A stretch of DNA of 52,607 nucleotides, taken from positions 1 to 52,607 of IMG/VR virus record IMGVR_UViG_3300036861_000357; one strand, given 5' to 3'. The notes under the pieces were generated by a model. It had not been told where the DNA came from. It did not search any database and saw nothing but the letters and a program-made list of their open reading frames with translations. Shown here piece after piece: positions 5,119 through 33,611 of the stretch. Source of the DNA: a virus (Duplodnaviria; Caudoviricetes). The translations under genes and the position numbers were made by a program. Numbering within the stretch: the first letter of the stretch is position 1; every line of letters starts with the position of its first letter.

Positions 5119-5121
5119 CCC

Positions 5122-5523
5122 ATGACCGTCCTCACCGCTTCTGGCCGCGACCCCGAGCAAACTCGCCTCAACGCGATGCTCCAGCACTGGCTCCGCCTTC
5201 CAGGCACCCCTCTCATGTGCCATCATCTCGGGTCCAATCGCTTCACCCGAGAGGATCTCGTCCGACTCGACGCCGGCCAGATGGACAAGCTTGAACTCTC
5301 GACTTGGATCGTGCGTCTTCTTACCAACCGGCAGATCAAGGCGCATATCGTCAAGCAACTCGTAGAGGATCGGGCCTACCGGGAGAAGCAGTGCGCGCCC
5401 AACAAGCAGTTCCCGGCCGACACAATCTCCACCACCAAGGCCGTGAAGGCTGACTTAACGCAGATTTACGCGGAGGTGAAGGAGCGGGCGGAGCTTGGGC
5501 GGAAGGGCATCCTCCTCCCCTGA
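5122..5523 (+). CDS. hypothetical protein
   Basis: ORF packed in the packaging operon with typical codon usage. Confidence 0.65.
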   Translation: MTVLTASGRDPEQTRLNAMLQHWLRLPGTPLMCHHLGSNRFTREDLVRLDAGQMDKLELSTWIVRLLTNRQIKAHIVKQLVEDRAYREKQCAPNKQFPADTISTTKAVKADLTQIYAEVKERAELGRKGILLP

Positions 5524-10645: not shown

Positions 10646-10799
10646 CGTCGCCTAGTCCACCGCCTCTCCTGGCTCCCTGCCTCTGGGGGCTTCCTTCATG
10701 TCCAAGATCAAAGGCCGGTCCACGAAGGGGATTCCCTCGTGGGTCCTGTCTCTCCCATCCGAGGACCGCTTCCCCGGTTGGCCGCTGGTTGGTGGTGGC
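10640..10799 (+). ncRNA. putative structured cis-RNA (capsid leader)
   Basis: several nested stems between the scaffold stop and the capsid GTG at 10800. Confidence 0.4.
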
Positions 10800-12128
10800 G
10801 TGGCTTCCACGTTCACCAACCTCTCGGCCGGCCTGAAGCGCATCTACTCGGACGAGACGTTCGAGTACGCGCAGAACGCCGCCTCGCCGCTGGTCGAACT
10901 CTTCGAGGAGGCGGACGAGATCGAGCCGGAGGGCGCCGGATACTTCTGGCCCTTCATGCTGCGCTCGCCCCAGAACATCGGCACCCCGGCCGAGGCCGGA
11001 AACGTCCCGCCGATCAAGCAGCGCACGGAGATTCAGGGCAGCCTGAACGCCGGGCAGTTCGTTGGGGGCTTCGAGATTTCGTTCCTGCTCGAAGCCGTGG
11101 GCACGGCGCGGGGTACCTGGAACAAGGGTGAGGTCAAGAAGCACAGCTTCGACACCCTGCGCGACCTCGTCAAGCACCGCAACCGGATCTACGCCGGCAC
11201 GCACGGGACCGGGCGCATCGCGACCGTGCAGACCACCACCTCGTCCCTCAACACCTTCGTCGCCTCCCTCTCCACGACCGGGGCGGGCTTCGGCGGCGCG
11301 GGCTTCGGCGCGCTCCTCCTCCGCCCCAACATGCTCATCGACGTCTACACCCTGGACGTGGGCGGGGCCTCCGTCATCACCAGCCGCAAGATCACCGACA
11401 TCGCGAAGGCCACCCGCACCGTGACCTTCGATGGTGCTGCGGCTTCGCTCACCGCCGGCCAACACGTCTACATCGCCGGCAGCTACGGTCAGACCACGGT
11501 CCCCAACGGGCTGATGGGGCTCGTGGACGACGGGGAGTTCCTGGACGTTATCCACGGTCAGTCCCGTACCACCAACCCCGAACTCAAGGGCCTCGTCATG
11601 CGGAACGGCGGCACACTGCGCGCCATCGACGAGGATCTCCTGATCGGTGGTGGGCTCGTCCTCCGCACCGACTCCGACTCCGCCATCGACGCGATGGTGA
11701 TGAACGTGGGCCAGTACCTCAAGTACATCAAGTCCGTGCGGCCCACGCGCTACCAGGATCTCGCGGGTGGGCGCGGACCCCTCCGGTACATGGGGGGCAC
11801 CGGGGGCGACGAGACGATCGCCTTCTTCTTCGACGGGCGGCCGATCCGTCGCGTGGTCGCGGAGGACGTCGCTCCTCGCCACGTGTACGGCATCGACCTC
11901 TCGGCGATGCGGTGGGCGCCGATCCGCCGCCTCGGCTGGTACGATCACGGGGGAGGCTCCATGTTCATCCAGGGCGCTGACTCCGGAGGGCTCAAGACCA
12001 CCCGCCAGGCCACGATGTACTCGATCGAGAACATCGGCACCTTGGCCCCGTGGGCGCACATCCGCTACCAGGACTGCTCGGATCCGCTTCTGTGCGGTCC
12101 CATCTACGGGGGATCCGACACCGTCTGA
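10800..12128 (+). CDS. major capsid protein
   Basis: MASTFTNLSAGLKRIY..SPL start, GTHGTGRIA, PNGLMGLVDDG, HGQSRT; strong codon bias; position after scaffold. Confidence 0.85.
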   Translation: MASTFTNLSAGLKRIYSDETFEYAQNAASPLVELFEEADEIEPEGAGYFWPFMLRSPQNIGTPAEAGNVPPIKQRTEIQGSLNAGQFVGGFEISFLLEAVGTARGTWNKGEVKKHSFDTLRDLVKHRNRIYAGTHGTGRIATVQTTTSSLNTFVASLSTTGAGFGGAGFGALLLRPNMLIDVYTLDVGGASVITSRKITDIAKATRTVTFDGAAASLTAGQHVYIAGSYGQTTVPNGLMGLVDDGEFLDVIHGQSRTTNPELKGLVMRNGGTLRAIDEDLLIGGGLVLRTDSDSAIDAMVMNVGQYLKYIKSVRPTRYQDLAGGRGPLRYMGGTGGDETIAFFFDGRPIRRVVAEDVAPRHVYGIDLSAMRWAPIRRLGWYDHGGGSMFIQGADSGGLKTTRQATMYSIENIGTLAPWAHIRYQDCSDPLLCGPIYGGSDTV

Positions 12129-12143
12129 GGTCTCCCGAGACGT

Positions 12144-12183
12144 GCCGCTGGGCGGGGAAACAATAGGTCAACCGCCCAGCGGC
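12144..12183 (+). terminator. hairpin after the capsid gene
   Basis: perfect 12-bp inverted repeat GCCGCTGGGCGG/CCGCCCAGCGGC. Confidence 0.6.
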
Positions 12184-12208
12184 GTTCCAAGGACTGAGGT
12201 TCTTCTTC

Positions 12209-12970
12209 GTGCTCCAGCGCGGCGACACCGATCGGGTCTTCGAGATGCTCCTTGCTGGGGCGAAGTCCGCCATGGCGAACCGCTGGCGCTACGCCGGCTA
12301 CAGGATCGCCACCTTCGCGCCCCCCGGCCTCCCATTCGATCCGGCCGTGGTGGCTCGCTTTCGCTCCGAGATCGATCCCGACGTTGCGTTCCTGTGGATG
12401 CGACACGTCTGGATCTCCCCGGCCGGGACCGAGCACTGCTTTGACTACCACGTCATCGCGTCCGCCTCCGAGAACTGCATCGCGATCGAAGAGGACGAGG
12501 ACCAGACCAAGCGTGCCGTGCCCCCTCACCGCGACTTCCAGCATGGGGTCCTCCAGCCCTACTTCGGCAAGCGAGTTCGCCCGCACTCCTACATCGAGAT
12601 CCTTCACTCGCGGTCGAGGTATCTCCCAAAGAAGATCCTTGGTGTCTTCGATCCACTCTCGATGCGCCACTTCCACAAGTACCGGGAGATCACCTATCTC
12701 CACGACACCGTGAAGAGGAAGGATCTCAACAAGCAGGAGGTGGAGGGCGTCTACGAGCGCATACGCAAGATCGACTCCGCGTGGCAGGCCGAGTCCGACT
12801 ACCGCTGGGACCACGACTGGAATTATCTCGCTGGGTTGGTGAACAAGCTCGATGCCCGGGAGCGCGCGGAGATCCTTGGTGGCGCCCAGCGTCGCGCGAA
12901 CTACATCGGACACGCTCTTCCCCCGGAGGTCGCGGCCATGCTCCGCCGGGCCGGGGTCCCCGCCGCATGA
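12209..12970 (+). CDS. hypothetical protein
   Basis: ORF with typical codon usage; GAGGT SD. Confidence 0.7.
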   Translation: MLQRGDTDRVFEMLLAGAKSAMANRWRYAGYRIATFAPPGLPFDPAVVARFRSEIDPDVAFLWMRHVWISPAGTEHCFDYHVIASASENCIAIEEDEDQTKRAVPPHRDFQHGVLQPYFGKRVRPHSYIEILHSRSRYLPKKILGVFDPLSMRHFHKYREITYLHDTVKRKDLNKQEVEGVYERIRKIDSAWQAESDYRWDHDWNYLAGLVNKLDARERAEILGGAQRRANYIGHALPPEVAAMLRRAGVPAA

Positions 12971-12995
12971 CGAGAAGATAGAAAGGATCGCCACT

Positions 12996-14021
12996 ATGTC
13001 CAGCGCAGCCGCCGGAATCGGTCGGGTTGGGAACTTGCTCCCGGGCCAGAAGCGCACCGAAGTCGTTCCTCGCCCCGTGGACTACCACGAGATCACGACC
13101 CCGATACGGGGTCAGGAAATCTACAACCCCGATCCCGACCAGGAGGTGATCGCGGAGTTCAATGGAGAGCGCTACCGTATCCCGCCCCGTGGGGAGCGCC
13201 TTGTCTTCCGCGACCCGTTCACGCTGGCCGAGACCCAGTACCCCAAGCCCGGGGTGTGCCCGATCCGAGACTACACAGTCATGGTCCACGGCAAGCGCTA
13301 CGTCTACCTGGCGAAGGACATCATCAAGTTCTTCTGCGGCGAAGACGGGCGCTCCGGTACGCTCTCACCGCTCGGAGTGCGGCCTCTCTTCGGCGACAAC
13401 GGGGAGAAGGACGCCGCCGCTCGCGCCGACGCCGAGCAGGCTTGGGCGGGGGGCAAGGACGGGGAGGCCAGGCAGATCGTCACCAACCACGAGGAGGCCG
13501 TTGCCTTCGCCCGCGACACGGGCGGGTCGGTGCCGCGCCCCACCGCCAGGGTCCTCTGGGCCTACGACTGGCTCGACTCCCGAGATGCCGAGGCCCTGCT
13601 CCCCTACTCCTGCGCGGTGTGCAACCAGGGCTTCAAGGACGAGCGCTCCATGCTCGTCCACACCGTCGCTCGTCACAAGAAGCACCCGGCGGCCCAGGAC
13701 GCGGCGCGGGCGCTGAACCTCCAAGGGGAGACCGGGAACGTGGGGGTTACCAATCCCACGCCCGCCCCTCCGGCCCCGACCGAAGCCGACGTCCAGCGCA
13801 TCCTCGAACAGCGTGAGCGCGAGGATCCCGTCGAGGGACTCACTGAGGATGCGCTCACCGGCGCTGCCGCTGCGCCCGCGGTGGCGGCTGGTCCGGACGA
13901 GGACGACGACGACGGTGAGGGGGAGGACGAGGATCGTGAGACGGGTGATCCGGTCGGCAAGGCGTCGGCCCCGGGGCTTCCCCCGCCGCCGGCCACCAGC
14001 CGCTCGAACAGGAAGAGGTGA
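12996..14021 (+). CDS. protein with a classical C2H2 zinc finger and acidic tail
   Basis: AAGGA SD; YSCAVCNQGFKDERSMLVHTVARH. Confidence 0.75.
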   Translation: MSSAAAGIGRVGNLLPGQKRTEVVPRPVDYHEITTPIRGQEIYNPDPDQEVIAEFNGERYRIPPRGERLVFRDPFTLAETQYPKPGVCPIRDYTVMVHGKRYVYLAKDIIKFFCGEDGRSGTLSPLGVRPLFGDNGEKDAAARADAEQAWAGGKDGEARQIVTNHEEAVAFARDTGGSVPRPTARVLWAYDWLDSRDAEALLPYSCAVCNQGFKDERSMLVHTVARHKKHPAAQDAARALNLQGETGNVGVTNPTPAPPAPTEADVQRILEQREREDPVEGLTEDALTGAAAAPAVAAGPDEDDDDGEGEDEDRETGDPVGKASAPGLPPPPATSRSNRKR

Positions 14022-14024
14022 GAT

Positions 14025-14555
14025 ATGGCCGGGAGAAAGAAGGCGGCGGAGGCCGGTGGGACCGACACCGGGGCGGCGGTCTTCGTGGACAACCCTACCA
14101 AGGACAGCTTCGAGTTCGGGGCCGCAGGGGAGATGTACTCGCTATCCCCGGGCGCGAACAAGATGGTGCCGAAGACGTTGGGGCTGACCGCCCAGCGCCT
14201 CGGCGAGGCTGCCCTGGAGCAACTCGGGGGGAAGGGCCTCGTGCTCCGAGCCACCGGCGGGAAGAGGGCGGTCAAGGCGGAGCCGGCGAAGAAGGGCGCC
14301 AAGAAGGGCGCCACCGTCTCGGTCTTCGGTCGCGCCGGTGCCACGCTCTACCCCGCTGACCAGGCGAAGGCGCTGGAAGGCGTCCAGAGCCCTCCAGCGG
14401 AGGAGCGGATGCAGCCGATCCGCCAACCCGAGGCCACCGACCGCGGCCCCTCGTCGGGGTTCAAGGACGAGACGAAGAAGGCGAAGCGTGGAAAGGGGAA
14501 GAAGAAGGAGACCGGGGCCAAGCGGGGCAAGGCCACGGTGAAGAAAGGCAAGTAG
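14025..14555 (+). CDS. Lys-rich hypothetical protein
   Basis: GAGGTG SD; basic C-terminus. Confidence 0.7.
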   Translation: MAGRKKAAEAGGTDTGAAVFVDNPTKDSFEFGAAGEMYSLSPGANKMVPKTLGLTAQRLGEAALEQLGGKGLVLRATGGKRAVKAEPAKKGAKKGATVSVFGRAGATLYPADQAKALEGVQSPPAEERMQPIRQPEATDRGPSSGFKDETKKAKRGKGKKKETGAKRGKATVKKGK

Positions 14556-14582
14556 GGGCTCCTTTCCAGTCCTTGCTTGTCT

Positions 14583-14627
14583 GGGCGCGGCCGGGTCCGT
14601 GGCGAGCCCGCCCGCGCCCTCTTTCTT
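14583..14627 (+). terminator. intrinsic terminator
   Basis: GGGCGCGG..CCGCGCCC stem followed by TCTTTCTT. Confidence 0.6.
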
Positions 14628-14638
14628 GAGGTGATCGC

Positions 14639-15367
14639 TTGGCGACCGAAGACCTCGGCAACGGGAAGGAAATGATCGATGCCCTGATTCAGTTTGGGCT
14701 CGAACTCGACCTCGCCGACGCCTACGTCACTACCGAGTGGATCCCCAGGGCCAAGTTTGCCGTGCAGATCGCCGTCAACGAGTTCTGGAGGGCGGGTGAT
14801 TGGGACATCAAATTCCCCTCCACCACCCTCACCCTCCTCGCCGCCAACTCGGACTGGGCCGAGGCCCCCGCCGACTTCCTCCGAGTGGGCGCGCACGGGG
14901 GACTCTACGTCTTTGGTAAGACCAAGATCGACTACCGGGACCCAGAGAGATTCCTGCGCGAGCGGCGGGTGATCGGGAACTCGTACGCGACCTACCCCCG
15001 CTTCTACACGATCCGCGGGCAGACCGCCAACCGCCTCCCGAAGATCCTCTTCATGCTTCCCATCGACCCAGCCGGAGCCAACCTCGACATCGACCTCTTC
15101 TACGAGGCCCGCCGCCCCCAGGTGCTCTACGCCACTACCGCCGGGGCAAATGGGATCGACGTCATCCCCGTCGAGTACCGTCACGACATCATCTACGTTG
15201 GGGCGCTTGACTACCTCCGTTACGACGGTGGGGACGCGCGCACTATCATGCAGATCTCCCCGGGCTTCAAGCGGGCAGTGCTGGAGGCGGCGGGTCAGAG
15301 GCTCCACCAACTCGATGGTGTCCAGCAAATCGCGGACGAAGGTATCGCCGATGAAGGGATGTGGTGA
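14639..15367 (+). CDS. head-tail adaptor-like protein
   Basis: size, position and motifs W...F, P.DF, P.FY, IPVEYRHDIIYVGA. Confidence 0.65.
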   Translation: MATEDLGNGKEMIDALIQFGLELDLADAYVTTEWIPRAKFAVQIAVNEFWRAGDWDIKFPSTTLTLLAANSDWAEAPADFLRVGAHGGLYVFGKTKIDYRDPERFLRERRVIGNSYATYPRFYTIRGQTANRLPKILFMLPIDPAGANLDIDLFYEARRPQVLYATTAGANGIDVIPVEYRHDIIYVGALDYLRYDGGDARTIMQISPGFKRAVLEAAGQRLHQLDGVQQIADEGIADEGMW

Positions 15368-15368
15368 G

Positions 15369-16112
15369 ATGAAGAAGCTCTGGGCTGGCGTGCTCGCCCT
15401 CCTCCTGTTCCCGGTGCCGCTCCTGCCCCAGCCGGTGGGTCCGCTCAAGACGGTTCGCGTGGTGGTGGAGAACTGGGACCTTGACGCCACCACCTACACC
15501 TATCCCCTGACTTCCCCTGCGATCATGGGGCCGGGCCAGCGGGCGGTGACAAGTGGCGCCTCTACCACCGTGACGAACTGCGCCCTCTGCACCGCGCCCT
15601 TCGCCGGGGTGGCGGTCGGCGACGTCATCATCTTCTTCGTCAACGATACCCAGGTGTACCGCTATGTCACGGCGAAGGCTTCCGACATCTCGATCACGGT
15701 GGATACTGCGATCGACCTCTCCACCAATGGGACGGTAGGCTACTCCTTCGTATACCGGACAGTCACCATCGGGACCGGAGCCACAAACGGCTGGTTCCAG
15801 GTCGGAGGTGGTGGCATCTCCAGCGCCGTCACCTACCAGATCGACCAGTTGAACGCGACAGGTGGGGTGGACGTGCGGATCGAGTGCCGGATGTCCTCCT
15901 CCGCTAGCGGGCTCTCCGCTCCGATCAGCGTCTTCGAGCGCAATGTGACCACGGCTGGGATCGGGACCGCGGCCTCCACCGGGCGCACCACCGTCGAGAT
16001 TTTGCCCCACTTTACCGATTGCAGGGTCGGGATGAAGTTCGGGTCCGCCGACGACGGGACCGACACCGGGGCAGCGGCCGAGGTCATCAACATCTACGTG
16101 AACACGTACTGA
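15369..16112 (+). CDS. signal-peptide-bearing beta-rich (T/G/V) structural-like protein
   Basis: MKKLWAGVLALLLFPVPLLP-Q; 4 Cys. Confidence 0.75.
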   Translation: MKKLWAGVLALLLFPVPLLPQPVGPLKTVRVVVENWDLDATTYTYPLTSPAIMGPGQRAVTSGASTTVTNCALCTAPFAGVAVGDVIIFFVNDTQVYRYVTAKASDISITVDTAIDLSTNGTVGYSFVYRTVTIGTGATNGWFQVGGGGISSAVTYQIDQLNATGGVDVRIECRMSSSASGLSAPISVFERNVTTAGIGTAASTGRTTVEILPHFTDCRVGMKFGSADDGTDTGAAAEVINIYVNTY

Positions 16113-16124
16113 GGGGGGAGAAGC

Positions 16125-17132
16125 GTGAACAAGAAGCTCTCGGCGATCACCGCGGTCTTCCTTGGCCTCGCTGCGCTGGTGGGAGCGGAGCCGGTGGAGT
16201 CCTCCCTCAAGCTCTTCTACATTGGCCAGGTCAAGGGAGCGGGTGGGCGGGTGTACTCGGCTTACAAGATGCCGCTGTTCGACGTGGTGGCGCTGAGAGG
16301 TGGCGGGGCCGTCACGGCCAGTGGTAACAACAATTTCACCGGCACCAACACCTTCCTCGACACGAATTTCTCCATCCTCGATGACGGGGACACGACGAAG
16401 GCGGTGAAGTTCCAGGTCTCCGGCGTCACCACTGGGAACACGGTCACGCCGTTCACCTTCCAAGGCACAGCCGCCGCCCCTGCGATAGGAATCCCGGATG
16501 GGACGGCTCTTGTCCCGGCAATCAACTTCCAATCTGATGCGGATGGGACCGGGGGTGGGCTCTTTCGCTCAGCAGCGAATCAGATCAGCCTCAGTATCAA
16601 CGGGGCGGAGCAGATTCGATGGGGAGCAAGTGCCCTGTATCTGTCAGGAAACTTGGCAGTCAATACCCACGTCACACGGTTAGCATCAGGATCTACTATT
16701 GGCTGGTCAACCACCTCTGCTATATCTGGGCAATTAACTGTCCAAGAGACATCGGTTGGGGCTGCCAAGACGTTAATCGATGCTACTGCTGTGAACTTCG
16801 TTCAAGTTTCAGTAGCTTCCAACTCCAGTGCCTATGTTGACATCACATATGGCGTGGAAGCTCAGAACGGGACCGACTGGCAAGTCACGGGGGGGACGGC
16901 CCATGTAGCTATTGTCAACAAGGCCGGCACGGAGACGTGTTCCGCGATCACCGAAGTCGGGGAAGTGACCCAGGCATCGCTCGGTACTCTTACCGCAACA
17001 ATCACCTGTGACACTTCTCCTACCAATGGCATCAACTTTCAGATGAACGCGGACTCCTCGCTCAATGTGGCCCCTACGATGGTTTACCGGGTGCTGAGGA
17101 TGGTGGGGAGTGGGAATATCACGCCGCAGTAA
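16125..17132 (+). CDS. signal-peptide-bearing tail fibre-like protein
   Basis: MNKKLSAITAVFLGLAALVGA-E; fibre-type motifs DDGDTTKAVKF and PDGTALVPAINF..D..GGLFRSAANQI; 2 Cys. Confidence 0.75.
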   Translation: MNKKLSAITAVFLGLAALVGAEPVESSLKLFYIGQVKGAGGRVYSAYKMPLFDVVALRGGGAVTASGNNNFTGTNTFLDTNFSILDDGDTTKAVKFQVSGVTTGNTVTPFTFQGTAAAPAIGIPDGTALVPAINFQSDADGTGGGLFRSAANQISLSINGAEQIRWGASALYLSGNLAVNTHVTRLASGSTIGWSTTSAISGQLTVQETSVGAAKTLIDATAVNFVQVSVASNSSAYVDITYGVEAQNGTDWQVTGGTAHVAIVNKAGTETCSAITEVGEVTQASLGTLTATITCDTSPTNGINFQMNADSSLNVAPTMVYRVLRMVGSGNITPQ

Positions 17133-17148
17133 GACTTGGAGGAACCAG

Positions 17149-17535
17149 ATGAAGAGGTTGGTGGGCGCGTTTGGTGTCGTCGTGGCTCTGTTCGGTGGTG
17201 CCTACGCTCTTGCCCAGCAGGCCACCCTCAGTACCCCAGTGACCCGCGCCTCCGAGGACAACCTCCGGGTCGAGACCTACTTCGCCACCCGCGACTCCGG
17301 TGGGCGATGGGAGGTCCAGGTCTCCGTCCGAGATAGCAGCGGGAACGAGATCCGGCGTGTGAACCACTCCGGCCCCGACGCCGCGCACTCTGGGGCCACT
17401 GCGCTCGCGTTCGTGACCGCGCAAATGACAATCCGAGCGAGCGAGACGGGAGGCAATGCGCGCAAGATGGACTTCCGGATCCTGGGCTTCCTGCTCGACA
17501 ACGGCTACCTCTCCGGAGTGACGCTGGTCCCGTAA
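17149..17535 (+). CDS. signal-peptide-bearing small protein
   Basis: GGAGG SD; MKRLVGAFGVVVALFGGAYALA-QQ (AxA cleavage site). Confidence 0.75.
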   Translation: MKRLVGAFGVVVALFGGAYALAQQATLSTPVTRASEDNLRVETYFATRDSGGRWEVQVSVRDSSGNEIRRVNHSGPDAAHSGATALAFVTAQMTIRASETGGNARKMDFRILGFLLDNGYLSGVTLVP

Positions 17536-17544
17536 CCATCGCCC

Positions 17545-17976
17545 GTGCTCCCGCTCATGCTAATGACCACTCCGACCCCGGAACCAGCACCGTTCGTGGG
17601 GCCACCCCCACCCAGGACTTCGGCCGCCGCAGTCCCAGGGTTCACCCACGAGGAGTCTCGTCCCGCTGGTCTCCATCCTGCACTCAAGTACGGACCCGCC
17701 GCCGCACACCTCGCCGACGCGCTCAGCACGCTGAAGGTGATCCAGGGGGGTGGGCGAGAACTCGACCCGGTCCTAGAACCATTCGCGGACAATCCGGCCG
17801 CTCTCGTCGGGACCAAGGTCATTGGTGGGCTGGCGATGGGACTCCTCGCCGATCTCCTCGCGAAGAAGGGCCACCGTAATTGGGCGAAGGCCGCCGCTGG
17901 TCTCAACATCGGAGTGCCGCTCGGGGCCGCCGGCCTCAACCTGAGCGGCGCAGTCAAGAAGAGGGAGCAACGGTGA
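17545..17976 (+). CDS. hypothetical, possibly membrane-associated protein
   Basis: G/A/L-rich hydrophobic helices. Confidence 0.55.
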   Translation: MLPLMLMTTPTPEPAPFVGPPPPRTSAAAVPGFTHEESRPAGLHPALKYGPAAAHLADALSTLKVIQGGGRELDPVLEPFADNPAALVGTKVIGGLAMGLLADLLAKKGHRNWAKAAAGLNIGVPLGAAGLNLSGAVKKREQR

Positions 17977-17979
17977 CGC

Positions 17980-18489
17980 ATGGATCTCTCCCCCACAACG
18001 ATCGGTTCGACGGCGTTCGGTGGCGCGGTCATAGCGGTCCTCGCTGCGATAGCCGGCCGCTACTTCGTCCCGAAATGGATCGCTGCGCGGGAGAGGTTCG
18101 AGAAGGAGATCACGGAGCAACTCCAGGGACTAATCCAGGAGCGAGCCCACCTTCTTCGCGAGCAGTCGGCCGAGAACAGGCGGCTCCAGGAGCGCATGGA
18201 TACCGCCGACCAGGCCATTCGCATGGAAATGCTTGGGAAGGATGCCGTCCTGAGGGACCTCTGGCACGCGGAGGCCGACCGATTCAATGTAGCGGTTGGT
18301 AAAGCCATGGCTCGAACTGAAGAGAACGCTCGGAATATCGATGGGATCTACACTCGTCTGAAGACGATCGAGGATCGGGCCGACGAGCGCCACGAGAAAA
18401 TCTCCGACGACCTGCACAAGCTCGACGTCACCATAACGCGGCTTGCCTCTGGAGTGGAGAACCTCATTCGGAAGAGTGGGAATGTCTGA
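17980..18489 (+). CDS. membrane-anchored coiled-coil protein (lysis cassette)
   Basis: N-terminal TM helix then coiled coil; upstream of the lysozyme. Confidence 0.65.
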   Translation: MDLSPTTIGSTAFGGAVIAVLAAIAGRYFVPKWIAARERFEKEITEQLQGLIQERAHLLREQSAENRRLQERMDTADQAIRMEMLGKDAVLRDLWHAEADRFNVAVGKAMARTEENARNIDGIYTRLKTIEDRADERHEKISDDLHKLDVTITRLASGVENLIRKSGNV

Positions 18490-18491
18490 TC

Positions 18492-18716
18492 GTGGAGCCA
18501 GTCCTGTGGTGGATCATCGGTGCCCTCCTGACCGCGCTCGGGGCCGTGCTCGGGGTGGCGCTGTGGATGGCCCAGCGCTGGCAATCCCGCGTCGAGAACC
18601 GACTGCGCCGGCTTCACCACCAGGCCAACCTCCTCCAGTGGCTGGTCTTCGTTGTCAAGGATCTGTACCGCAAGGTCTTCGGACGCGAGCCGCCGCCACC
18701 CCCCAAGGAGTCCTGA
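18492..18716 (+). CDS. small TM protein, holin candidate
   Basis: VLWWIIGALLTALGAVLGVALW TM helix; adjacent to the endolysin. Confidence 0.55.
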   Translation: MEPVLWWIIGALLTALGAVLGVALWMAQRWQSRVENRLRRLHHQANLLQWLVFVVKDLYRKVFGREPPPPPKES

Positions 18717-18720
18717 TCTG

Positions 18721-19236
18721 ATGATTCTGGAGAGTCTCATCCCGAGTCTCCGGGGCGCAGAGGGGTGGAGCCCGACCGTCTACATTGACACCACTGGTAA
18801 TCTCACCATCGGATACGGCTTCAATCTTGGGAAGCTCCACGTATCCGCCGCCGGCACTGTGAAGGTCGATCCCGTCAACGGGATATCTGTCGCGGTTGGT
18901 GAGCAACTCATTTTGTCCGAAGTCGTCGAGGTCATAACTGCCATTCGGGCCTCGCTCCCCTGGTGGGACCGCCTCGACGACGTCCGCCAGGAAGTCCTCG
19001 CCGATATGGCCTACAACCTGGGGATGCCCGGCCTGCTGAAGTGGCCGATCTTTCTCCGGCAGGTCAGGACCGGAGACTACGCCTCTGCCGCTGGCAACAT
19101 GCGTTCAACCCTCTGGTATCGGCAGACGGGGCGTCGCGCCCGCCGATTGGTTAAGATGATGGAGACTGGGCAGGATCAGCCGCCGCTCAAGCTCAGGCCG
19201 AAGAAGTTGAAGAAGCTGAAAAAGGAGGAAAAGTGA
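18721..19236 (+). CDS. endolysin, T4-like/GH24 lysozyme
   Basis: EG..PTVYIDTTGNLTIGYG catalytic E-D-T motif; RQEVLADMAYNLG; W..Q..RA.R. Confidence 0.9.
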   Translation: MILESLIPSLRGAEGWSPTVYIDTTGNLTIGYGFNLGKLHVSAAGTVKVDPVNGISVAVGEQLILSEVVEVITAIRASLPWWDRLDDVRQEVLADMAYNLGMPGLLKWPIFLRQVRTGDYASAAGNMRSTLWYRQTGRRARRLVKMMETGQDQPPLKLRPKKLKKLKKEEK

Positions 19237-20156
19237 AGAAGGAGACGAAGAGCAAAGTCAGGAACCCGAAGCACGCAGCCGCGACCGATCTCACCATCAA
19301 GGATCTGGAGAACCTCCGGGTCCTCAACCGCGCGTTCTCGGCGGACGACATCGTCGCCGCTGGGCAGAAGCGAGGTCTCGTTGGCAAGAAGGCCATCGAC
19401 ATCAACCTGCTCATGCAACTGCTCGTCCAGCTTGGCCCGATCCTCGGACCGCTGCTCATCCAGATCCTCACCAAGCCACCGCAACCGCAGCCCACCCCGG
19501 CGCCGACCCCCTCGCCAAGCCCCATCCCACCACCTCCGCCACCGGCCCCAACGCCGACACCCATCCCCACTCCCACCCCGGTGCCGCCTCCAGTTCCGTC
19601 GCGCACGGTGGCCTCCATTGGTTCGCGCGTCCTGGGGATCGAGGGCTGGGACCCGCGACGCGGGCATTTCCTGCTCGGCGGGGGGACGGTGCGGAACATC
19701 GTCAACGGCGCTGAGTTGATCGGCGCCGGCTACCGGATCCACTTCGACTCCACGCCGAAGGACCAGAACGGGCAGCCGTTCTTCAACGGGGACCTGCCGC
19801 GGTATCCCGAACTGTTCGCCATCGACCCCACGCAGGTCGCCATCGACCCTCGCAACGGGAAGTGGTCGAGCGGGGAGGGCAACAACCGGATCGAGCACTG
19901 GATCCGCGTCGATGGCCGCGAGTACGGCCCGCAGGGCGACACCGAGCCGGGCACGCCGTTCGACGGCCAGGAAGTCGTGGCACTGACCTCCGAGTACGAC
20001 GACGGCGCCTGCACGCCCGTCCTGACAGTGCCGCAGGACATCGACCTGTCCGCCGAGCACACCGTCGCCTACAGGGCGGTGTGGGTCGGCCCGGACGGCC
20101 GGCGGGTGGGGGGCAACTGGACGTCCGAGATGCGAGTACACGCCTGGGGGTTCTGA
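19233..20156 (+). CDS. protein with hydrophobic segment, PT/PS linker and beta domain
   Basis: LLMQLLVQLGPILGPLLIQIL, a long Pro/Thr linker, then a globular C-terminal domain. Confidence 0.7.
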   Translation: MKKETKSKVRNPKHAAATDLTIKDLENLRVLNRAFSADDIVAAGQKRGLVGKKAIDINLLMQLLVQLGPILGPLLIQILTKPPQPQPTPAPTPSPSPIPPPPPPAPTPTPIPTPTPVPPPVPSRTVASIGSRVLGIEGWDPRRGHFLLGGGTVRNIVNGAELIGAGYRIHFDSTPKDQNGQPFFNGDLPRYPELFAIDPTQVAIDPRNGKWSSGEGNNRIEHWIRVDGREYGPQGDTEPGTPFDGQEVVALTSEYDDGACTPVLTVPQDIDLSAEHTVAYRAVWVGPDGRRVGGNWTSEMRVHAWGF

Positions 20157-20163
20157 GGTAGCA

Positions 20164-20202
20164 ACGGCCCCGGGGTGGGATTTGGTCTTGCCTCGGGGCC
20201 GT
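20164..20202 (+). terminator. 17-bp hairpin (with G-U pairs)
   Basis: ACGGCCCCGGGGTGGGA-TTTGG-TCTTGCCTCGGGGCCGT in an intergenic gap. Confidence 0.55.
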
Positions 20203-20218
20203 CCTTAGGAGGGGCAGG

Positions 20219-20599
20219 ATGAGCGTAGTGCGGCGGCTCCCGGACGTCCCGGTCGTCCACCGGATGCCCACCCAGCAGAAGGTGAAGGCGTGGTTCGCGA
20301 TGAATCGCACGCTTGTCGGTGGGCTGCTCCTCCTCGCCTCTACCATCTTCCGCTTCACGCTTCACTTCGAGGGCCACAGCGACTTCGCGGACAACCTCAA
20401 GTTCTTCGCCGACCTCTGCATCACCGGCGGCGCCGCCCTGGCCGTGGCCGGTCGCACCAACTCCGACGAGGTGCACGAGGAGCGTGTGCACGCGGAGATC
20501 CGGCGGCGCTCTGGCGAGTATCCTGCCTACCGCCGTCGTGTGACCGACGTCGATCAGCTTGCGTCGATCCGAAAGAGGGATCAGGGTGGCTCTTCGTAA
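20219..20599 (+). CDS. two-TM holin-like protein
   Basis: AGGAGG SD; two hydrophobic segments and a charged C-terminus. Confidence 0.55.
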   Translation: MSVVRRLPDVPVVHRMPTQQKVKAWFAMNRTLVGGLLLLASTIFRFTLHFEGHSDFADNLKFFADLCITGGAALAVAGRTNSDEVHEERVHAEIRRRSGEYPAYRRRVTDVDQLASIRKRDQGGSS

Positions 20600-21983
20600 C
20601 GAGAAGGAGCAGGGTTACCGCACTCCGATCGACTCCCGGCTCGGGGTCAACATCGAGCATTTCGGCGGAGTGGACGTCGAGAGCGACCCCGCCGCGGTAG
20701 TGGATGGTCGATTCCAGTCCCTCATCAACGCTCTCCTCGGGACCGGGCCGATCAAGAACCGCGGAGGGCAATCCAAGACCAATCTCGTGGCGATCGGCAA
20801 CATCGAGGGCATGATCGACGCCTCCGACGTCGGAGCCTCCCACGAGATCGAGCTTGAGCCGGCGCCCGGTGGGGTCCTCCGACTCTTCTGGATCGGGACC
20901 GGCTCTGCGGACACGATCCAGCACAAGACCTACGACGGGGCCACCCTCGATACTCTCAGCGGGACGCTTGCCCCCGAGGGGGGCTCGCCAACCGCCCTCT
21001 TGAGCTTGGTGAGCGGGCCACCCAAGCTCTACGTCGGTGTCCCATCCTACCTGTCCGGGAGCGACTACATCCTCCCGCTCCTGCGCTGGACCGATGGCTC
21101 TCCCCCGTCAGGGGCTCTCGTCAATGTTGGGACCATCGTGAACCTTGGGGCGGGAGCGGGGAAGGCCCAGGCCGTCGTGTCCGCGCTGGCAAGGAGATTC
21201 ACGCGGCTCTACATCGGGATAGGGAGCCAGGATACCAGCCTCTACGCCACCGCCAGCGTCTACTCATGGGATGGTGCGACCTTCACCCTCGAAGACACTG
21301 TCACCTCTCCATGGACCGCTGCCGGCGAGACCATCTATCCGATACTCCTCATCGATGGACAGCGGGTGTACGCCTTCTATGCTGGCCTGCACGCCGCCGA
21401 TCCGGATGGGGATTACAAGATCCGGTTGCGGAACAGCGCCGGGGTGTGGAGCGACCTCACGCTGCCGGCCGCGATGAGCAATTCTCTCGGCCACTTCATC
21501 CCGACCAACTGCGACATCTTCAACGGGCTCGTCTATGTGGCGGGATTTGGGCAGGACGACGCCAATCCGATTGGTCAGTTCATATTCTCTTCAAACGCTG
21601 GGAGCAACTTCTCGCTGGAGCGAAAGATCCCGGATAGTGGTATCACCGCAGGAGTGGATCTCCGCACCTTCAACGGCTACCTCTATTACCTCTGGAGGAA
21701 GCTAAGCACCACAAACCTATTCCTTGGACGCTATGACGGAGCGACTTGGGACGACAACCACATCGACTTCACCGCCGCCTTCCCAGCGGAGCTTCCGATC
21801 AACGGGAGAGGGATGGAGGTCTACAACGGGTCTCTCTATATTTCCGCGTCGGGCAACCTCTACAAGTCGAATGGCGTCGTCACTGGCTCGGGCTGGACGA
21901 AGATCGGAGCGGTGTCGGGGCCGCAGATCGCAGTACCGGATCTTGCCGCGCGGAGGCATTGGCTCGCCACCTACAAGGCTTAG
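20586..21983 (+). CDS. tail nozzle-like protein, N-terminal part with beta-propeller
   Basis: FGGVDVESDP...SLIN...G.IKNRGG N-terminus; repeated FNG.LY and YDGATW blades. Confidence 0.65.
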   Translation: MALRNEKEQGYRTPIDSRLGVNIEHFGGVDVESDPAAVVDGRFQSLINALLGTGPIKNRGGQSKTNLVAIGNIEGMIDASDVGASHEIELEPAPGGVLRLFWIGTGSADTIQHKTYDGATLDTLSGTLAPEGGSPTALLSLVSGPPKLYVGVPSYLSGSDYILPLLRWTDGSPPSGALVNVGTIVNLGAGAGKAQAVVSALARRFTRLYIGIGSQDTSLYATASVYSWDGATFTLEDTVTSPWTAAGETIYPILLIDGQRVYAFYAGLHAADPDGDYKIRLRNSAGVWSDLTLPAAMSNSLGHFIPTNCDIFNGLVYVAGFGQDDANPIGQFIFSSNAGSNFSLERKIPDSGITAGVDLRTFNGYLYYLWRKLSTTNLFLGRYDGATWDDNHIDFTAAFPAELPINGRGMEVYNGSLYISASGNLYKSNGVVTGSGWTKIGAVSGPQIAVPDLAARRHWLATYKA

Positions 21984-21986: not shown

Positions 21987-23651
21987 ATGGCAGAGGGGCA
22001 TCACCTCGTCGTAGCCGAAGGGATCCTCTGGACCCGCCTGCAATCCGGGGCCAACTTCTCTTCGCTTGGAATCCCGGCCGGGGTTGGACTCCTCGGGAAC
22101 CGCCCGTTCATGACCCGCTTCCGTCGCGCGGTGGTGGGGGTCGGGCGCCACACTCCAGGCTTTGTCTACTCCGACGAGTTCAATAAGGCGTGGGCGCTGG
22201 GGATAGCGGACCCCTCGGTCGCGCTCACCATCTCCACCTCTGGCACGGGGATCACCGGCATCGTCATCCTCTATTACAACTGGCGGCACAAGGAGGGCAC
22301 CTCCCTCATCCACCAGGGCAATATCTCCCCTGGGTCGAACTCGCTCTCCGTTACGAACCAGGGAGTGACCACCACCAACATCCCAGCTACCGCCCCCGAC
22401 GCCCGCACCACCCACGTTGGGATCTGGGCCTCAGTGGATGGGGACATCCCGAAGTACGTCAGCGAGGTCACGATCGGGACCACCTCTTTCACCTGGAACG
22501 GTCCGGTCGCCGCCCGCGGTGACACCGTCCCCGTCAACTCGGATGGGACAATCAACGTCGGTGCCCGGGGGCGGCCTCCGATCGGCACGGTTGCGGTGCG
22601 CTACCACGGCCGGGTTTGGTATCTTGAGACCCTCCACCCGGAGCGCGTCTACTACTCCCTGATCGAGGAGGGGGAGAGCGTCAGTCCCACCGCGTACCTC
22701 AATACCCTCGGTCGTGAGGCCACCGTTGGGATGGGAGTGCAAGACGATCAACTCGTGGTCTTCGGCGCCGAGGTCATGTTCGACGTTCAGGGCTACGCCG
22801 GGGGCGGCTCCAACCCGGACTTCACGATGCGCTACATCGCCCAGGACATCGGCTGCATCTCCGCGTGCTCGGTGAAGTCGGTTTTCGGGCGGCTGCACTT
22901 CGCGTCAAAGAGGGGGCCGGCTCGCTACAGCGGTGGAGGGCGCCCGGAGATTCTCGGCGACGATAAGATCCAAACCTTCTGGATCGACGAGTACAAGGCC
23001 AACCGCGCCGCCTACGAGGATTGCCAGGGGGATTACGACGTCGAGCACCACGCTTATAAGATCCTCATCCCGGGGACGCCACCCTTCTACTACATCGTGA
23101 GCTACGCGCTCGGGGAGGATCGCCTCCCAGAGGTCCACTTCATGGACCGGACGCGCAACGACAACTCGATTGGGACCTTGTGGGATTCGGAATCGGGGGC
23201 GAGCTTCAACTACGTGGGAGGTGCGGACGGGTTCTTGAGGAAGGAGAACCAGTACACCAACGCGGACGACGACGGGGACACGCTCGCCAAGCGGCTCATC
23301 ATCATCCCGAAGCATCTCCTCGTACAGCCATCAGGTGGGCGAGCGCACGGGGGCACCTTCAAGGGTTTGACCCTCTACATTCGGAGCGCCAGCCAGGGCT
23401 ACATTGTCTCCGCCTACGGAGGGGACGATCCCGCCGCCGAGGCCGATGCTCCGCGGTGGGGGCCATTCACGTTTGGTGCCCTGCACATCGCGGGGAAGGT
23501 GGACGAGACGAGTAAGTTCATTCGCCTCACCCGAATGTCCGGGAAAGGCATGACCCTCAAGATCCAGGTCAACTCCCCGATTGGGTTTGAATACCGGGGG
23601 TTTTCGGTGGATCATGTATCCGGGTCACAGTCCGGAGGGCTAAAGGCGTAG
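21987..23651 (+). CDS. tail nozzle / packaged-DNA-stabilisation-like protein, C-terminal part
   Basis: YHGRVW, RVYYS, QLVVF, DIGCIS..SV motifs; C-terminal beta-sandwich GKGMTLKI. Confidence 0.7.
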   Translation: MAEGHHLVVAEGILWTRLQSGANFSSLGIPAGVGLLGNRPFMTRFRRAVVGVGRHTPGFVYSDEFNKAWALGIADPSVALTISTSGTGITGIVILYYNWRHKEGTSLIHQGNISPGSNSLSVTNQGVTTTNIPATAPDARTTHVGIWASVDGDIPKYVSEVTIGTTSFTWNGPVAARGDTVPVNSDGTINVGARGRPPIGTVAVRYHGRVWYLETLHPERVYYSLIEEGESVSPTAYLNTLGREATVGMGVQDDQLVVFGAEVMFDVQGYAGGGSNPDFTMRYIAQDIGCISACSVKSVFGRLHFASKRGPARYSGGGRPEILGDDKIQTFWIDEYKANRAAYEDCQGDYDVEHHAYKILIPGTPPFYYIVSYALGEDRLPEVHFMDRTRNDNSIGTLWDSESGASFNYVGGADGFLRKENQYTNADDDGDTLAKRLIIIPKHLLVQPSGGRAHGGTFKGLTLYIRSASQGYIVSAYGGDDPAAEADAPRWGPFTFGALHIAGKVDETSKFIRLTRMSGKGMTLKIQVNSPIGFEYRGFSVDHVSGSQSGGLKA

Positions 23652-26279: not shown

Positions 26280-29200
26280 GTGGCCCTCCGCCTCCCCACC
26301 TATGACGAGTTCTTGGGTCGGATGCCAAGCGAGGGTGGGCGCGCGCCCGAGCCCCATGGGGGTGTGGGGCGGCGGCCGGCGCTCGATCTCCCGAGCTACG
26401 AGAGCTTCACAGCGGGGTTCGGACCCCCCGAGCCCGCCAGCCCCGGGTTCTTCGCCAAGGCCGGTCAGGCCCTCGGCCGCGCGCGTGAGGTCATCCGTCG
26501 AGCACCAGCCATCGCGGGCTACTACTACGCGGGTCAGATGCCTGGGCAGGAAGGGTTCGCGGGTCGCGCTCTCACCGCTCCAGAGGAGGAGTTCGAGCCC
26601 TCCCAGATCCGAGAACTGATCTCCCCGCCCGAGCAGCCGGCCACCTCCATCCCCGGGGCCATCGCGCGCGGGGTGGCCGGGGAGGTCGGCACCATCCTGG
26701 CCGACCCAGAGCAACTCGCGATCCTCGCCGGGCTCCGTGGACTCGGTGGGGCCGCCACCCGCGCGCGAGCCGCTGTCACCGCAGCCCCAACTGTTGAGGC
26801 CGCCGCCGCCGCTGCTTCCCGTGCGCGAGCACTCGCGGCTCTCCAGCGTGGGGTCTCGGCTGGCTTCGCCGCGGAGATGCTCCCCGGCGCGGCGGAGGGA
26901 GTCGCGGAGGCCGGGCGCCGGTACATGGAGGGGGGCCTCACTCCGGAGACGGCGGAGGCTGCGACCCAGGCCGCCCTCGGGACGCTCTTCACCCTCGGGG
27001 CCGGGCTCCATGCGGTGGGGCCGACGCCGGCCGCCGCCAGGGTGCCCTCGCCGGCCGAGGTCCAAGGACTCTTCGCGCACGAGAGGCCGATCGGCCCGGA
27101 GTTCTCCTACGGCGAGGCCCCGATCGGCCCCGTCCCTGAGTCCCCGGTGCCCATCGGCCCGATGGGTCCCTATCCCGAGCCAATCGGTCCCATTGGGGAG
27201 GCCCCTCGCCCCCTCGGCCCCGAGCCCCTCCCCGCTCCGCGCCCGGACCGAGACTTCATCACCGACTACCGGCCGGAGCGGATCTTCCGCGCGCCTGAGC
27301 AACCCTTCCTCCTCCCAGACGTCGAGCCCTACCCGATCACCCCGTCATGGCGGACTGGCCTCGTCACCGAAGCCGCTCCACCCCCTCCGGCCCCGGGGCT
27401 CGAAGCCCAGTTCGGGCAAGCGCTCCGGGCGCCTCGTCAGGTTGGGAGGGAGGCGACCTTCGAACTCCTCCAGGGGCCGCCGATCCCGGAGCCGCCCCCG
27501 GCCCCGTCCATGGCCCCTCCTCCGCTGGCGGCGCCACCCTCGCAGGTTCCGCTCCTGCCGGATCTCCGTCCCGTGCCAACAAGAGCATTGGAGCCGCCGC
27601 CCGCTCCGCGCGGACCCGCTCCCGCAGCAGGGCCGGTCGCGGGGCAGCACCGACTCCCCTACGACCAGATCGAGACCATGGTGGACGAGAGCGTTCCGGC
27701 AGCCGAGGCTGCGCTGCGCCGGCCCGGTGGGGAACAGGGAGGGATCGCGCGCGATGCCACTGGAGCGGTGGTCAACATGCTCGCACCGGGAATGCACCCG
27801 GCCAAGGTTGAGTTCGGCCTGGAAGGTCTGAAGGAAGGACCAAAGAAGATCGCCGACGCTCTCCACAGGGATAAGGACAACCCGCTCTACCTACGCGCGC
27901 GCGAGGCCATGCGAACCTCCATCGAGGATAGGGTGGATCTCGAAGCCCGTTACCGCGGGGAAGCGTACGAGGCACCGGGCGCGGTGGACACGAGCTTCAA
28001 CCCCGAGGAGTTCGAGCCCGCTGCCCAGGCCGCGACCACCGCCCCCGCTCCCAGGGTGCCCTACGACTTCCCACTGGAGCGTGTCCCGGAGGTGCAGCAG
28101 GTCGCGGCTCGGGAAGCAGCGCGCGGCCTCGCTCGGGAGTTCGCCGAAACGGGCAAGCTCGACGACGCCGCCCTCGACGCGCGGTTGCCCGAGAATCTCA
28201 AGGCGCACCGCGAGGCGATCAAAAGCCACGTGGTGCAGGAGGCCTCGGCGCTCATCCAGGGGCGGGACTTCGTCGAGGCCCTGCGCGAGCGGCACGGGGA
28301 AGCGGGGCCGGATGGGGTGTCGGTCGTGGCTCCGGGGGCGGCGCGAAGCGGCCTTCCCGAATGGGTCCACGGGATGCCGGATTCATACGACATCGTCCAG
28401 CGCGCGGGCGGGAAGATCGTGGGCGGCGCCGAGGTGCGCGGCAACACGCTGGTGATGATCTCGGGTGGGCGTGCGCTCGACTCCCCCGTCAGCATCCGGC
28501 CGGTCTACGAGGCGCTTGACAAGGCCGGGGTCCGCCGCAATGATATCCTCACCGTTTTAGGGGCCGAGGCCAGGGCCACCCGACGCGCCGCCCCGAGGGA
28601 GGAAGTAGATGTCAGCCGCAAGCCCCGTCCCGAGCCCCCAGCCGCAGCCGCTCCCGAACTTCCTCGACCGGCTGAAGGCCCGCGCCCAGGACCAGAGCCT
28701 CCACCCGCTGCTGCGGCAGGAGTTCCTGCGGAGGGTCGAGGCGCTGGAGAAGAGCCTCGCGCCGTCGCCCAGCCAACGCCCACAGCCCCCGCTCCCGAAG
28801 TCGAACGGCCGGTAGTCAAAGAGGTCGCACCTCGGCCACCGGAGGCCGCGAAGCCGGAAGCCGCCGCACCACCACCTGCCCCACCCAGCGAAGTACCTCC
28901 GGAGGCTGAGCCCCCTGCCGTGGTCTCCTTCGGCAAGCCCGCCACCTATCAGGGCCGCAAGCGCATCGAGGTCAAGCCCCCCTTCGAGTCTCCCAAGCGC
29001 TTTGCGATCGAACAAGACGCGAAGGGTGCCAAGACCTACTCCGTCGTTAGTGAGGAGACCTCCGGCGCCACTGGGGAGAAGTCTCGCACCGTCCACGCCA
29101 GTGGGTTGACGCTCAACGAGGCCAAGCGCCGTGCGCCGGAGTTCGTAGGGGAGGCGCCGGAGGTGGTGCCTGGCTGGACTCGAAGCGACGTTCTCACTGC

Positions 29201-33143: not shown

Positions 33144-33611
33144 GTGACAACCCGTCGACGACATCCGATCCCGGCTTCTAATTTCCGGGCTCTCATCGCT
33201 GGGTTGCCGGATGAGATGCAGCGTCCCCTCGGGCGCTTCGCGGAAGCCCTAGAGAAGTTCGCTCGTAATGTCCTCGACATGCACGACAGCGAGCCGGGGC
33301 CGCACGCGAGCACCCACGCCCCGAACACACTGGACGACCCGCTCGCGACGGCGGCACCGTCCAACGACGTGGACGGGGATGCGCCGCTCGCTGGCAGCCT
33401 CGGGACTCTCCTCCGCTCCGACGCCAAGATGCGGCTCGGGATCACCACTACCAAGGGGGACTTGATCGTCCGCTCCACGAAAAACGATCGACTCGCAGTC
33501 GGGGTGAACGGAGAGGTGCTCACCGCAGACTCTACCCAGGCTTCTGGGGTGAAGTGGGCGGCGGTGGCTGCGGGTGATCTGGACGCGCAACTCATGGCGA
33601 TAATGCTCTGA
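33144..33611 (+). CDS. tail fibre-associated protein
   Basis: TTKGDLIV...RLAVG.NGEVLTADS..ASGVKW fibre-repeat motif. Confidence 0.65.
   Translation: MTTRRRHPIPASNFRALIAGLPDEMQRPLGRFAEALEKFARNVLDMHDSEPGPHASTHAPNTLDDPLATAAPSNDVDGDAPLAGSLGTLLRSDAKMRLGITTTKGDLIVRSTKNDRLAVGVNGEVLTADSTQASGVKWAAVAAGDLDAQLMAIML

Follow-up and report, generated by a model that had tools for sequence, protein, structure and literature searches.

Why would a tailed phage place export signals on late proteins, when the particles of such phages are taken to assemble wholly in the cytoplasm? The question is raised by three consecutive genes, here called A, B and C, in a 52,607-nucleotide stretch of viral DNA (the window; positions 1 to 52,607 of IMG/VR virus record IMGVR_UViG_3300036861_000357, Duplodnaviria, Caudoviricetes). 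An earlier note on this DNA had described them as tail-operon genes with cleavable Sec-type leaders, and had proposed that their products are exported, folded oxidatively in the periplasm and added to particles at or after lysis, or alternatively act as secreted receptor decoys. Judged by sequence comparison, the leaders are a conserved and selected feature of the A, B and C families.

Leaders and predicted cleavage sites

The three open reading frames (ORFs) lie on the plus strand where the earlier note had placed them (Table 1), and their N-termini match the letters it quoted. Leaders were recognised by a heuristic of our own, not a trained predictor, which demands a 9-residue segment with a mean Kyte-Doolittle hydropathy of 2.0 or more, a net positive charge ahead of it and a short uncharged stretch. 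A, B and C pass this rule with hydropathy maxima of 2.96, 2.87 and 2.80, respectively, and an n-region charge of +2 each. When all start codons of the window were scanned, the only plausible genes with leader-like N-termini were these three and a fourth far downstream (33907-35466). A run of three among four leader-positive genes has a chance probability of p = 0.007 (3025 of 424270 arrangements, based on 58 crude gene calls).

The description of the leaders as cleavable held for B and C, which have the canonical sites VGA↓E and ALA↓QQ (the arrow marks the predicted cut). The site in C was taken from alignment A2, in which A22, Q23 and Q24 are nearly invariant; our script picked the nearby AYA↓LAQ. 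In A, the proposed 'LLP-Q' has Pro at -1, and no site with a small residue at -1 was found. Most relatives of A, unlike the window's copy, satisfy the small-residue rule at -3 and -1, and the closest of them (P0006) reads LAA↓QS. Cleavage of this copy of A is doubtful on these grounds. The residue that follows the cut is Gln in C, Glu in B and also Gln in A, albeit after a non-canonical site. No lipobox is present in A, B or C, and a spanin or lipoprotein identity was dropped for that reason.

Conservation of the leaders among relatives

Homologs keep the leader in 30 of 31 cases for A, in 23 of 24 for C and in about 117 of 130 for full-length proteins with the C-terminal domain of B. In the A family, 26 of the 31 members pass the rule and about 30 have a leader by eye in the alignment; P0006, P0012, P0013 and P0021 fail only through a longer N-terminal extension or a long uncharged stretch, and P0033 has none. 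The rule is passed by 22 of the 24 C proteins and a leader is visible in 23, the exception, P0040, beginning where the others have their mature part; the Ala-Gln-Gln-Ala-Thr junction hardly varies. Close relatives of B are few, yet proteins that share its C-terminal domain are common (704 cluster representatives at E ≤ 0.001). We sampled 151 proteins of this family, namely 150 among the matches listed (the query included) and P0004, and the domain was present in 138. Among these, 103 pass the rule, 14 are leader-like by eye, 13 lack a leader and 8 are fragments of under 200 amino acids (aa). The other 13 sampled proteins match B through its repeat region only; by our own reading, 12 of them have ordinary leaderless N-termini of the tail-fibre kind, and the 13th is positive by the rule through an internal Met and is doubted. 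The strict rule undercounts (89 of 150 B-family proteins before internal Met starts were allowed), and the additions by eye are a matter of judgement.

Among viral contigs, the B-like protein carries a leader in 15 of 17 loci, or 11 of 13 after identical loci were merged, the exceptions being L007 and L020. In L007 (4-2011), the leaderless B-like ORF is overlapped at its start by an ORF of 340 aa that has a leader; a frameshift or a misassembly may have divided a single gene into these two.

These homolog sets bear directly on whether the leaders are artefacts, that is, products of wrong start sites or of non-coding ORFs that are hydrophobic by chance. The genome is GC-rich and has many spurious long ORFs on both strands, and for P0005 another caller started A six codons earlier, both of which would favour such an explanation. 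However, hundreds of relatives carry the leader in register, G+C content at third codon positions (GC3) is 0.86 in A and 0.83 in C, Shine-Dalgarno sequences precede B and C, the monomer models of A and C are confident, and gene order is conserved in L004, L008 and L016. We regard an artefact as effectively refuted by the homolog sets and its probability as negligible.

Signs of probable export

Cysteines provide the first sign that the leaders are used. Their numbers are as previously noted (4 in A and 2 in B, with none in C), and in both families they covary pairwise, as expected of disulfides formed outside the cytoplasm; the proposed oxidative folding gains support from this. In the A family, the columns at positions 46/134 and 173/218 of the window's copy and an inserted pair covary with p = 1e-4, 8e-4 and 2e-6, and the co-occurrence table for Cys272 and Cys295 of B is [[90,22],[1,30]] (p = 1e-15), although these Fisher tests ignore relatedness, so that the p-values are too small, which counts against the export reading. 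Non-partner Cys columns of the A family show no covariation (p = 0.54 and 0.11), and because these controls are negative we take the pairing effect to be real. In P0073, P0074, P0085, P0090, P0108 and other relatives of B, the mature part opens with an Asp-Val-Val/Ile-Cys...Cys loop right after the cut, a second, N-terminal Cys pair that the window's B does not have.

The residue after the cut provides the second sign. Gln directly follows an allowed cut in 21 of 29 A, 23 of 24 C and 56 of 104 B proteins, against a background of 2-3.5% Gln in the mature parts. The published Q-rule study gives a mean Q-value of 71% for Bacteroidetes, with 332 of 334 species exceeding 48%, and less than 9% Gln after the cut for most Chlorobi (PMC5837995). 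The pattern fits the Bacteroidetes Q-rule, and the leaders look tuned to a Bacteroidota-type secretion system.

The third sign is leader drift. Mean identity in the C family is 0.37 over the leader and 0.66 over the mature part; the A family shows little difference (0.30 vs. 0.35). The paired cysteines, the Gln after the cut, and leaders that vary while the mature parts are conserved all speak for genuine export. For a case made by computation the support is good, and it is probable that A, B and C are exported and folded in the periplasm.

The same observations can be set against the possibility that nothing is exported during infection and that assembly is cytoplasmic as usual, the hydrophobic N-termini serving as an uncleaved anchor, as a membrane-active infection segment or as a docking helix. 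An uncleaved anchor might, for instance, gather fibers at the inner face of the membrane or within it. Cytoplasmic assembly is the rule for tailed phages, the window's copy of A lacks a canonical cut site, and the 13 leaderless full-length relatives of B's knob presumably fold in the cytoplasm. In L008, moreover, the A-like frame (4332-5423) stays open for about 110 codons upstream of the leader, with a good Shine-Dalgarno sequence at 4332; the upstream frame may be a separate small gene without its own stop or a membrane-anchored fusion, and the latter could speak for an anchor. Yet the small-x-small↓Gln sites are nearly invariant (23 of 24 in C), cysteines covary in pairs, the leader diverges while the mature part is conserved, and the n-h-c layout recurs across about 170 relatives. 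A docking helix needs none of these features, and we therefore favour cleaved export signals over it and consider the absence of export unlikely.

Predicted structures and modular organisation

The earlier note had likened the mature parts of A and B to beta-rich phage structural or fiber modules. A models as an all-beta sandwich with a predicted local distance difference test score (pLDDT) of 88.3 and a predicted template modelling score (pTM) of 0.79. Its likenesses in the PDB and BFVD, to jelly-roll capsid and TNF-like sandwiches, a gingipain adhesin domain, carbohydrate-binding modules and two podophage tail entries, are weak (TM-score 0.18-0.38, the best PDB match having E = 6e-4 at a TM-score of 0.18). 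The top BFVD matches (TM-score 0.25-0.35) are tip-attachment-like or unnamed phage proteins. With matches this weak, no fold family was assigned to A. Four matches of its profile to PDB sequences, at E 0.15-0.98, were read as chance and set aside.

B resembles a fiber. Residues 48-77 form a repeat motif with 70-74% identity (tblastn) to fiber-like proteins of 890-985 aa in L002 and L003, and three copies of the mature chain are predicted to form an intertwined homotrimer with an interface over residues 61-328. The trimer score is 0.85 (runs of 0.81, 0.88 and 0.85), compared with 0.00 for the best of three controls; contact agreement is at least 78% and partner pLDDT at least 78 in these runs. 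In the calibration of this score, the mark was reached by 20 of 30 proteins solved as one-chain pairs and by 1 of 23 solved as single chains. However, the run, with three copies and an alignment of our own, is unlike that calibration, and may reflect likeness to solved fibers, a point that weighs against B's fiber role. The B profile matched nothing among PDB sequences, and tblastn of B against 50,697 phage records gave no match at E ≤ 0.01.

The distal part of B varies among relatives. P0067 conserves the N-terminal part of B and carries another knob, as do some other relatives, and in L004 the order A-B'-C is kept with a B' whose distal part differs. As read from these comparisons, the exchanged distal part is the pattern of swapped receptor-binding modules. 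The 3' half of B (16600-17130) is visibly poorer in G+C than its surroundings, which suggests a recently exchanged distal module; GC3 of the whole gene is 0.68, against 0.86 in A and 0.83 in C, and the stretch 16001-18000 has 61.6% G+C.

The model of C (pLDDT 87.6) has a three-stranded sheet and two helices, with no Foldseek match in the PDB at E ≤ 0.001 and no Atlas or family match. A six-frame search of the window for second copies of A, B or C found none at E ≤ 10.

Operon structure and genomic context

The three genes are closely packed. A starts with ATG one base past the stop of the gene upstream, B with GTG 12 nucleotides past the stop of A behind a G-rich Shine-Dalgarno sequence, and C with ATG behind GGAGG; from the upstream gene through the lysis genes the spacers are 1, 12, 16, 9, 3 and 2 nucleotides. 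The only terminator-like site on the plus strand of the scanned region 12000-21000 is inside A. No plus-strand promoter-like site was found in that region by a scan for sigma-70 sites only, and a Bacteroidota-type host would use others. An independent 'moron' transcription unit was dropped, as there was no sigma-70-type site on the plus strand of the scanned stretch.

The gene upstream (14639-15367) had been called a head-tail adaptor. Its feature likeness in the Atlas supports that name, with 30 of 30 matches to SU10_adaptor clusters at 0.97; 71-84% of the members of the clusters it resembles carry PF24175, a resemblance of features only. The family databases do not support it: no match was found in Pfam (hmmscan, even at E ≤ 10), PHROGs or NCBIfam. 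The placement in a tail operon was not borne out, as the genes after C form a lysis cassette with a lysozyme (PF00959) and are not tail genes.

The position between an adaptor-like gene and a lysis cassette recurs in related contigs. L004 keeps relatives of A, C and 17545-17976 in order. In L008 the order is capsid gene, adaptor-like gene, A-like gene, a gene for a 267-aa leader protein and one for a 707-aa B-like protein; in L016 an A-like gene is followed by two B-like genes, a gene for a 220-aa leader protein and a lysozyme gene. A small leader-bearing gene stands behind the B-like gene in most loci, although these small genes are not relatives of C. In three low-GC viral contigs (L015, L018 and L019), the genes for B-like proteins of 534-1095 aa, which bear leaders, are succeeded by series of further genes with leaders. 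The leaders end in Gly/Ser-Gln, as in Bacteroidota. Several of the trailing genes in L018 and L019 are of the lipoprotein type and are followed by an endolysin-like gene (confirmed in L019). From this gene order, the module belongs stably to the late operon and occupies the boundary between structural and lysis genes. Searched alone against viral contigs, A found no locus. The C profile found nothing in viral contigs or species genomes and three short contigs in metagenomes, and the B profile found nothing in species genomes with the single pattern used, a result that does not show bacterial genomes to lack it.

The record is rated 83% complete and has 60-71% G+C. The plus strand carries, in order, a split terminase, a P22-type portal (6328-9018), the major head protein (10698-12128), several late genes without assignment and, further on, the lysozyme, a 2287-aa internal virion protein (26280-33143) and short fiber-anchor-like genes behind it; replication genes are on the minus strand. 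The internal virion protein matches its PHROG only over residues 1820-2076. The source is an uncultured and very divergent short-tailed phage, and its capsid protein has a single match, at 22% identity, among the 50,697 phage records. tRNA genes, sought in the window as a host clue, were not found.

Table 1. Positions of the A, B and C genes, their parts and neighbouring features in the window
Feature	Position	Strand	Remarks
Adaptor-like gene, 242 aa	14639..15367	+	Stop one base before A start; Atlas likeness to SU10_adaptor
ORF A, 247 aa: leader and all-beta protein, 4 Cys (71, 74, 173, 218)	15369..16112	+	31 relatives; confident model
A leader, about residues 1-20	15369..15428	+	No canonical -3/-1 site
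ORF B, 335 aa, GTG start: leader, short N-terminal segment, fiber-repeat region, C-terminal knob	16125..17132	+	
B leader, residues 1-21	16125..16187	+	Site VGA↓E
B repeat motif, residues 48-77, Gly-run	16266..16355	+	Common to leaderless tail-fiber-like proteins of about 900 aa
B C-terminal domain, about residues 205-335, Cys272 and Cys295	16737..17129	+	
ORF C, 128 aa: leader and small alpha/beta protein without Cys	17149..17535	+	24 relatives
C leader, residues 1-22	17149..17214	+	Site ALA↓QQ
Lysis-type cassette	17545..19236	+	Directly behind C
Membrane protein of lysis cassette	17545..17976	+	Relative follows C relative in L004
Transmembrane plus coiled-coil protein of lysis cassette	17980..18489	+	
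Small transmembrane protein of lysis cassette	18492..18716	+	
Lysozyme, PF00959	18652/18721..19236	+	
Leader-bearing protein, 519 aa	33907..35466	+	Behind leaderless 155-aa fiber-anchor-like gene (33144..33611)

Some features further downstream deserve mention. The ORF at 19233-20156 contains a long Pro-rich linker that draws spurious NCBIfam matches. The 474-aa leaderless product of 20559-21983 has repeated strand-turn motifs, is beta-propeller-like by eye and could be the nozzle; neither it nor 21987-23651 has a PDB sequence match, and it is also without a family match. The 155-aa product of 33144-33611 has PHROG matches to the N-terminal parts of long virion proteins. In the leader-bearing protein encoded behind it, twin arginines precede the hydrophobic stretch, which could mean Tat instead of Sec export, and the predicted cut exposes Gln-Gln. 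B shows a weak likeness to this protein at its knob, around two Cys (E = 0.08). A lipobox scan of starts from 14000 to 36000 gave five matches, all of them alternative starts over 15198-16112, 34201-35466 and 35688-35867, with nothing in the lysis region 17500-20600.

Possible fate of the proteins after export

Where exported late proteins of this kind would act is the second question posed by the locus. In the reading that we favour, A, B and C would cross the host inner membrane by the Sec route. Signal peptidase I would cut B and C, and the leader may hold this copy of A as an anchor. Folding of all three would take place in the periplasm, where A and B would gain disulfides. B would be an intertwined fiber of three chains whose distal knob can be exchanged, A a lectin- or adhesin-like beta-sandwich protein and C a small companion; B, possibly standing on A, would be a receptor-binding appendage. 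B would not come into contact with the completed, leaderless particle until holin and lysozyme had opened the inner membrane and the wall, and would then dock. The lipobox scan of starts from 14000 to 36000 found no candidate for a lipoprotein-type spanin near the lysis genes, so the cytoplasm and periplasm could mix inside the outer membrane. Since the scan of all starts found no leader in the nozzle-like region, only distal parts would need late docking, which makes the idea less demanding. We think it rather likely that the B fiber is a receptor binder; that it docks to the virion after membrane permeabilisation is plausible, if somewhat short of an even chance.

A virion role is favoured by the fiber-like, modular nature of B and by its translational packing behind the adaptor-like gene. 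In addition, a further copy of B's distal domain, which a 'real' fiber could carry, was not found in the window (E ≤ 10), and the only other fiber candidate is the leaderless 155-aa stub followed by the leader-bearing protein of 33907-35466. Several observations weigh against it. The module lies beside the lysis cassette, a place where accessory proteins of the envelope are often encoded, and the genes for the nozzle-like and internal virion proteins come only after it. In mature B the predicted trimer begins after only about 40 residues, and no virion-anchor domain was recognised; 13 full-length relatives of B's knob are leaderless, and the window's own copy has Glu and not Gln at +1. A has no canonical cut site here, its fold matches are weak, and none of the three proteins has a match in Pfam (also at E ≤ 10), PHROG or NCBIfam, tail-fiber families included. 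The case rests on our own heuristic and on models. Finally, a full-text literature search, judged by titles and the starts of abstracts, found no paper on export of a tailed-phage virion part or on signal peptides of tailed-phage tail fibers.

Alternatively, A, B and C may be exported without joining the virion, as late proteins that act in the periplasm or on the envelope. B with A might then attach to receptors or glycans of the envelope, on the cell undergoing lysis and on its debris, keeping progeny from being lost there, or, once released, act on neighbouring cells, and C could be a periplasmic regulator or partner of the lysis membrane proteins, in the manner of a periplasmic antiholin. 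All of the evidence for export applies equally here. The lysis cassette is the module's immediate neighbour in the window and in L004, L005, L008 and L016, the B-like gene is followed by leader-bearing or lipoprotein-type genes in L015, L018 and L019 (with an endolysin-like gene next in the latter two), and C is always found beside membrane or lysis genes. A weakly resembles adhesin and carbohydrate-binding sandwiches, and the known signal-bearing phage proteins encoded near tail genes are non-virion envelope proteins (Lom and Bor of lambda, Llp of T5, Cor). However, a protein acting as decoy or mask would be expected to carry the binding domain of the virion fiber as well, and the search for second copies in the window found none for B's distal domain, so the secreted receptor decoys of the earlier note gain no support. 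Without an outer-membrane export signal, a periplasmic fiber cannot reach the cell surface before lysis, and B has neither a lipobox nor a Pfam match to the type IX secretion tail domain. For superinfection exclusion, a late gene coupled in its expression to the adaptor gene would be odd, and exchange of a fiber-like distal module is what receptor binders show. No leaderless fiber candidate was recognised in the 52.6-kb record, although many of its ORFs are unassigned and it is incomplete. We see a non-virion role as a possible but not the preferred explanation.

The docking of an exported fiber can be extended to a wider proposal, which we advance only tentatively, as assembly in two compartments. 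Head, adaptor, nozzle and internal proteins would be assembled in the cytoplasm, while receptor-binding fibers (B, perhaps seated on A, and the protein of 33907-35466) would be exported and, in the periplasm, would gain disulfide bonds and N-terminal caps. Once holin and lysozyme had acted, the cell would still be enclosed by its outer membrane, as no spanin would break it immediately, and would serve as a mixing chamber; the adaptor and the 155-aa stub would be the leaderless anchor points to which the hardened fibers attach.

Comparison with known systems

A large conserved family of phage fiber-like proteins looks built for the periplasm, about nine in ten of its full-length members carrying an export signal. 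If these proteins are virion receptor binders, assembly spans two compartments and the timing of lysis is part of morphogenesis; if they are not virion parts, phages secrete fiber-shaped adhesins for some other purpose, which is also undescribed. Either way, annotation that equates a signal peptide with 'not structural' would mislabel A, B and C. For phages without any other host clue, Gln after the cut also hints at a host of the Bacteroidota type.

The fibers of podophages, such as gp17 of T7 and the long and short fibers of SU10, are trimers with a conserved proximal anchor and swapped distal modules. Their genes stand next to those for adaptor or tail proteins; the fibers are not known to carry a signal peptide and are attached to the tail inside the cytoplasm. 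B is like them in its predicted trimer, its distal swaps, its gene beside an adaptor-like gene and the repeat motif it shares with long leaderless fibers. It is unlike them in its leader, the disulfide-type Cys pair of its knob, the lack of a recognised anchor domain and the lack of a PHROG or Pfam tail-fiber match. Lom and Bor of lambda, Llp of T5 and Cor of phi80 and N15 are small outer-membrane proteins or lipoproteins that act on the envelope and are encoded within or beside structural genes. A, B and C differ from these in having no lipobox, in the predicted fiber-like trimer of B and in forming a conserved module packed in the late operon. RI of T4 is a periplasmic antiholin with a signal-anchor-release domain. 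C is likewise a small exported-type protein encoded beside lysis membrane proteins, a likeness that is only a lead, as C has a classical ALA↓QQ site and no sequence or fold likeness was found for it.

Two further published systems carry export signals. Signal-peptide genes of Porphyromonas phages obey the Q-rule, the predicted signal-peptidase-I cut exposing Gln, which was read as adaptation to host secretion; in the part of that report available to us, their function is unknown and they are read as envelope modifiers, except for capsid proteins and spanins, with no tail fiber named (Matrishin et al. 2023, PMC10367356). The MAT (mosaic adhesive trimer) fibers of Bdellovibrio bacteriovorus are encoded by the bacterium and stand on its surface (Caulton et al. 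2024, PMC10769870); B is much shorter and is the product of a gene in the late operon of a phage. All 21 MAT proteins share a beta-rich domain of about 130 aa after the signal peptide, and many end in an S74 chaperone-protease (PMC10769870). B has about 40 residues before its predicted trimer, and no S74 domain was found in it; B is set apart from the MAT proteins by description, with no direct comparison to MAT sequences. Like B, however, the MAT fibers combine a signal peptide with an intertwined trimer of the phage-tail-fiber kind (predicted in the case of B) and varied C-terminal beta-rich tips, and they serve as adhesins outside the cytoplasm, one of their tips holding a single disulphide (Caulton et al. 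2024, PMC10769870).

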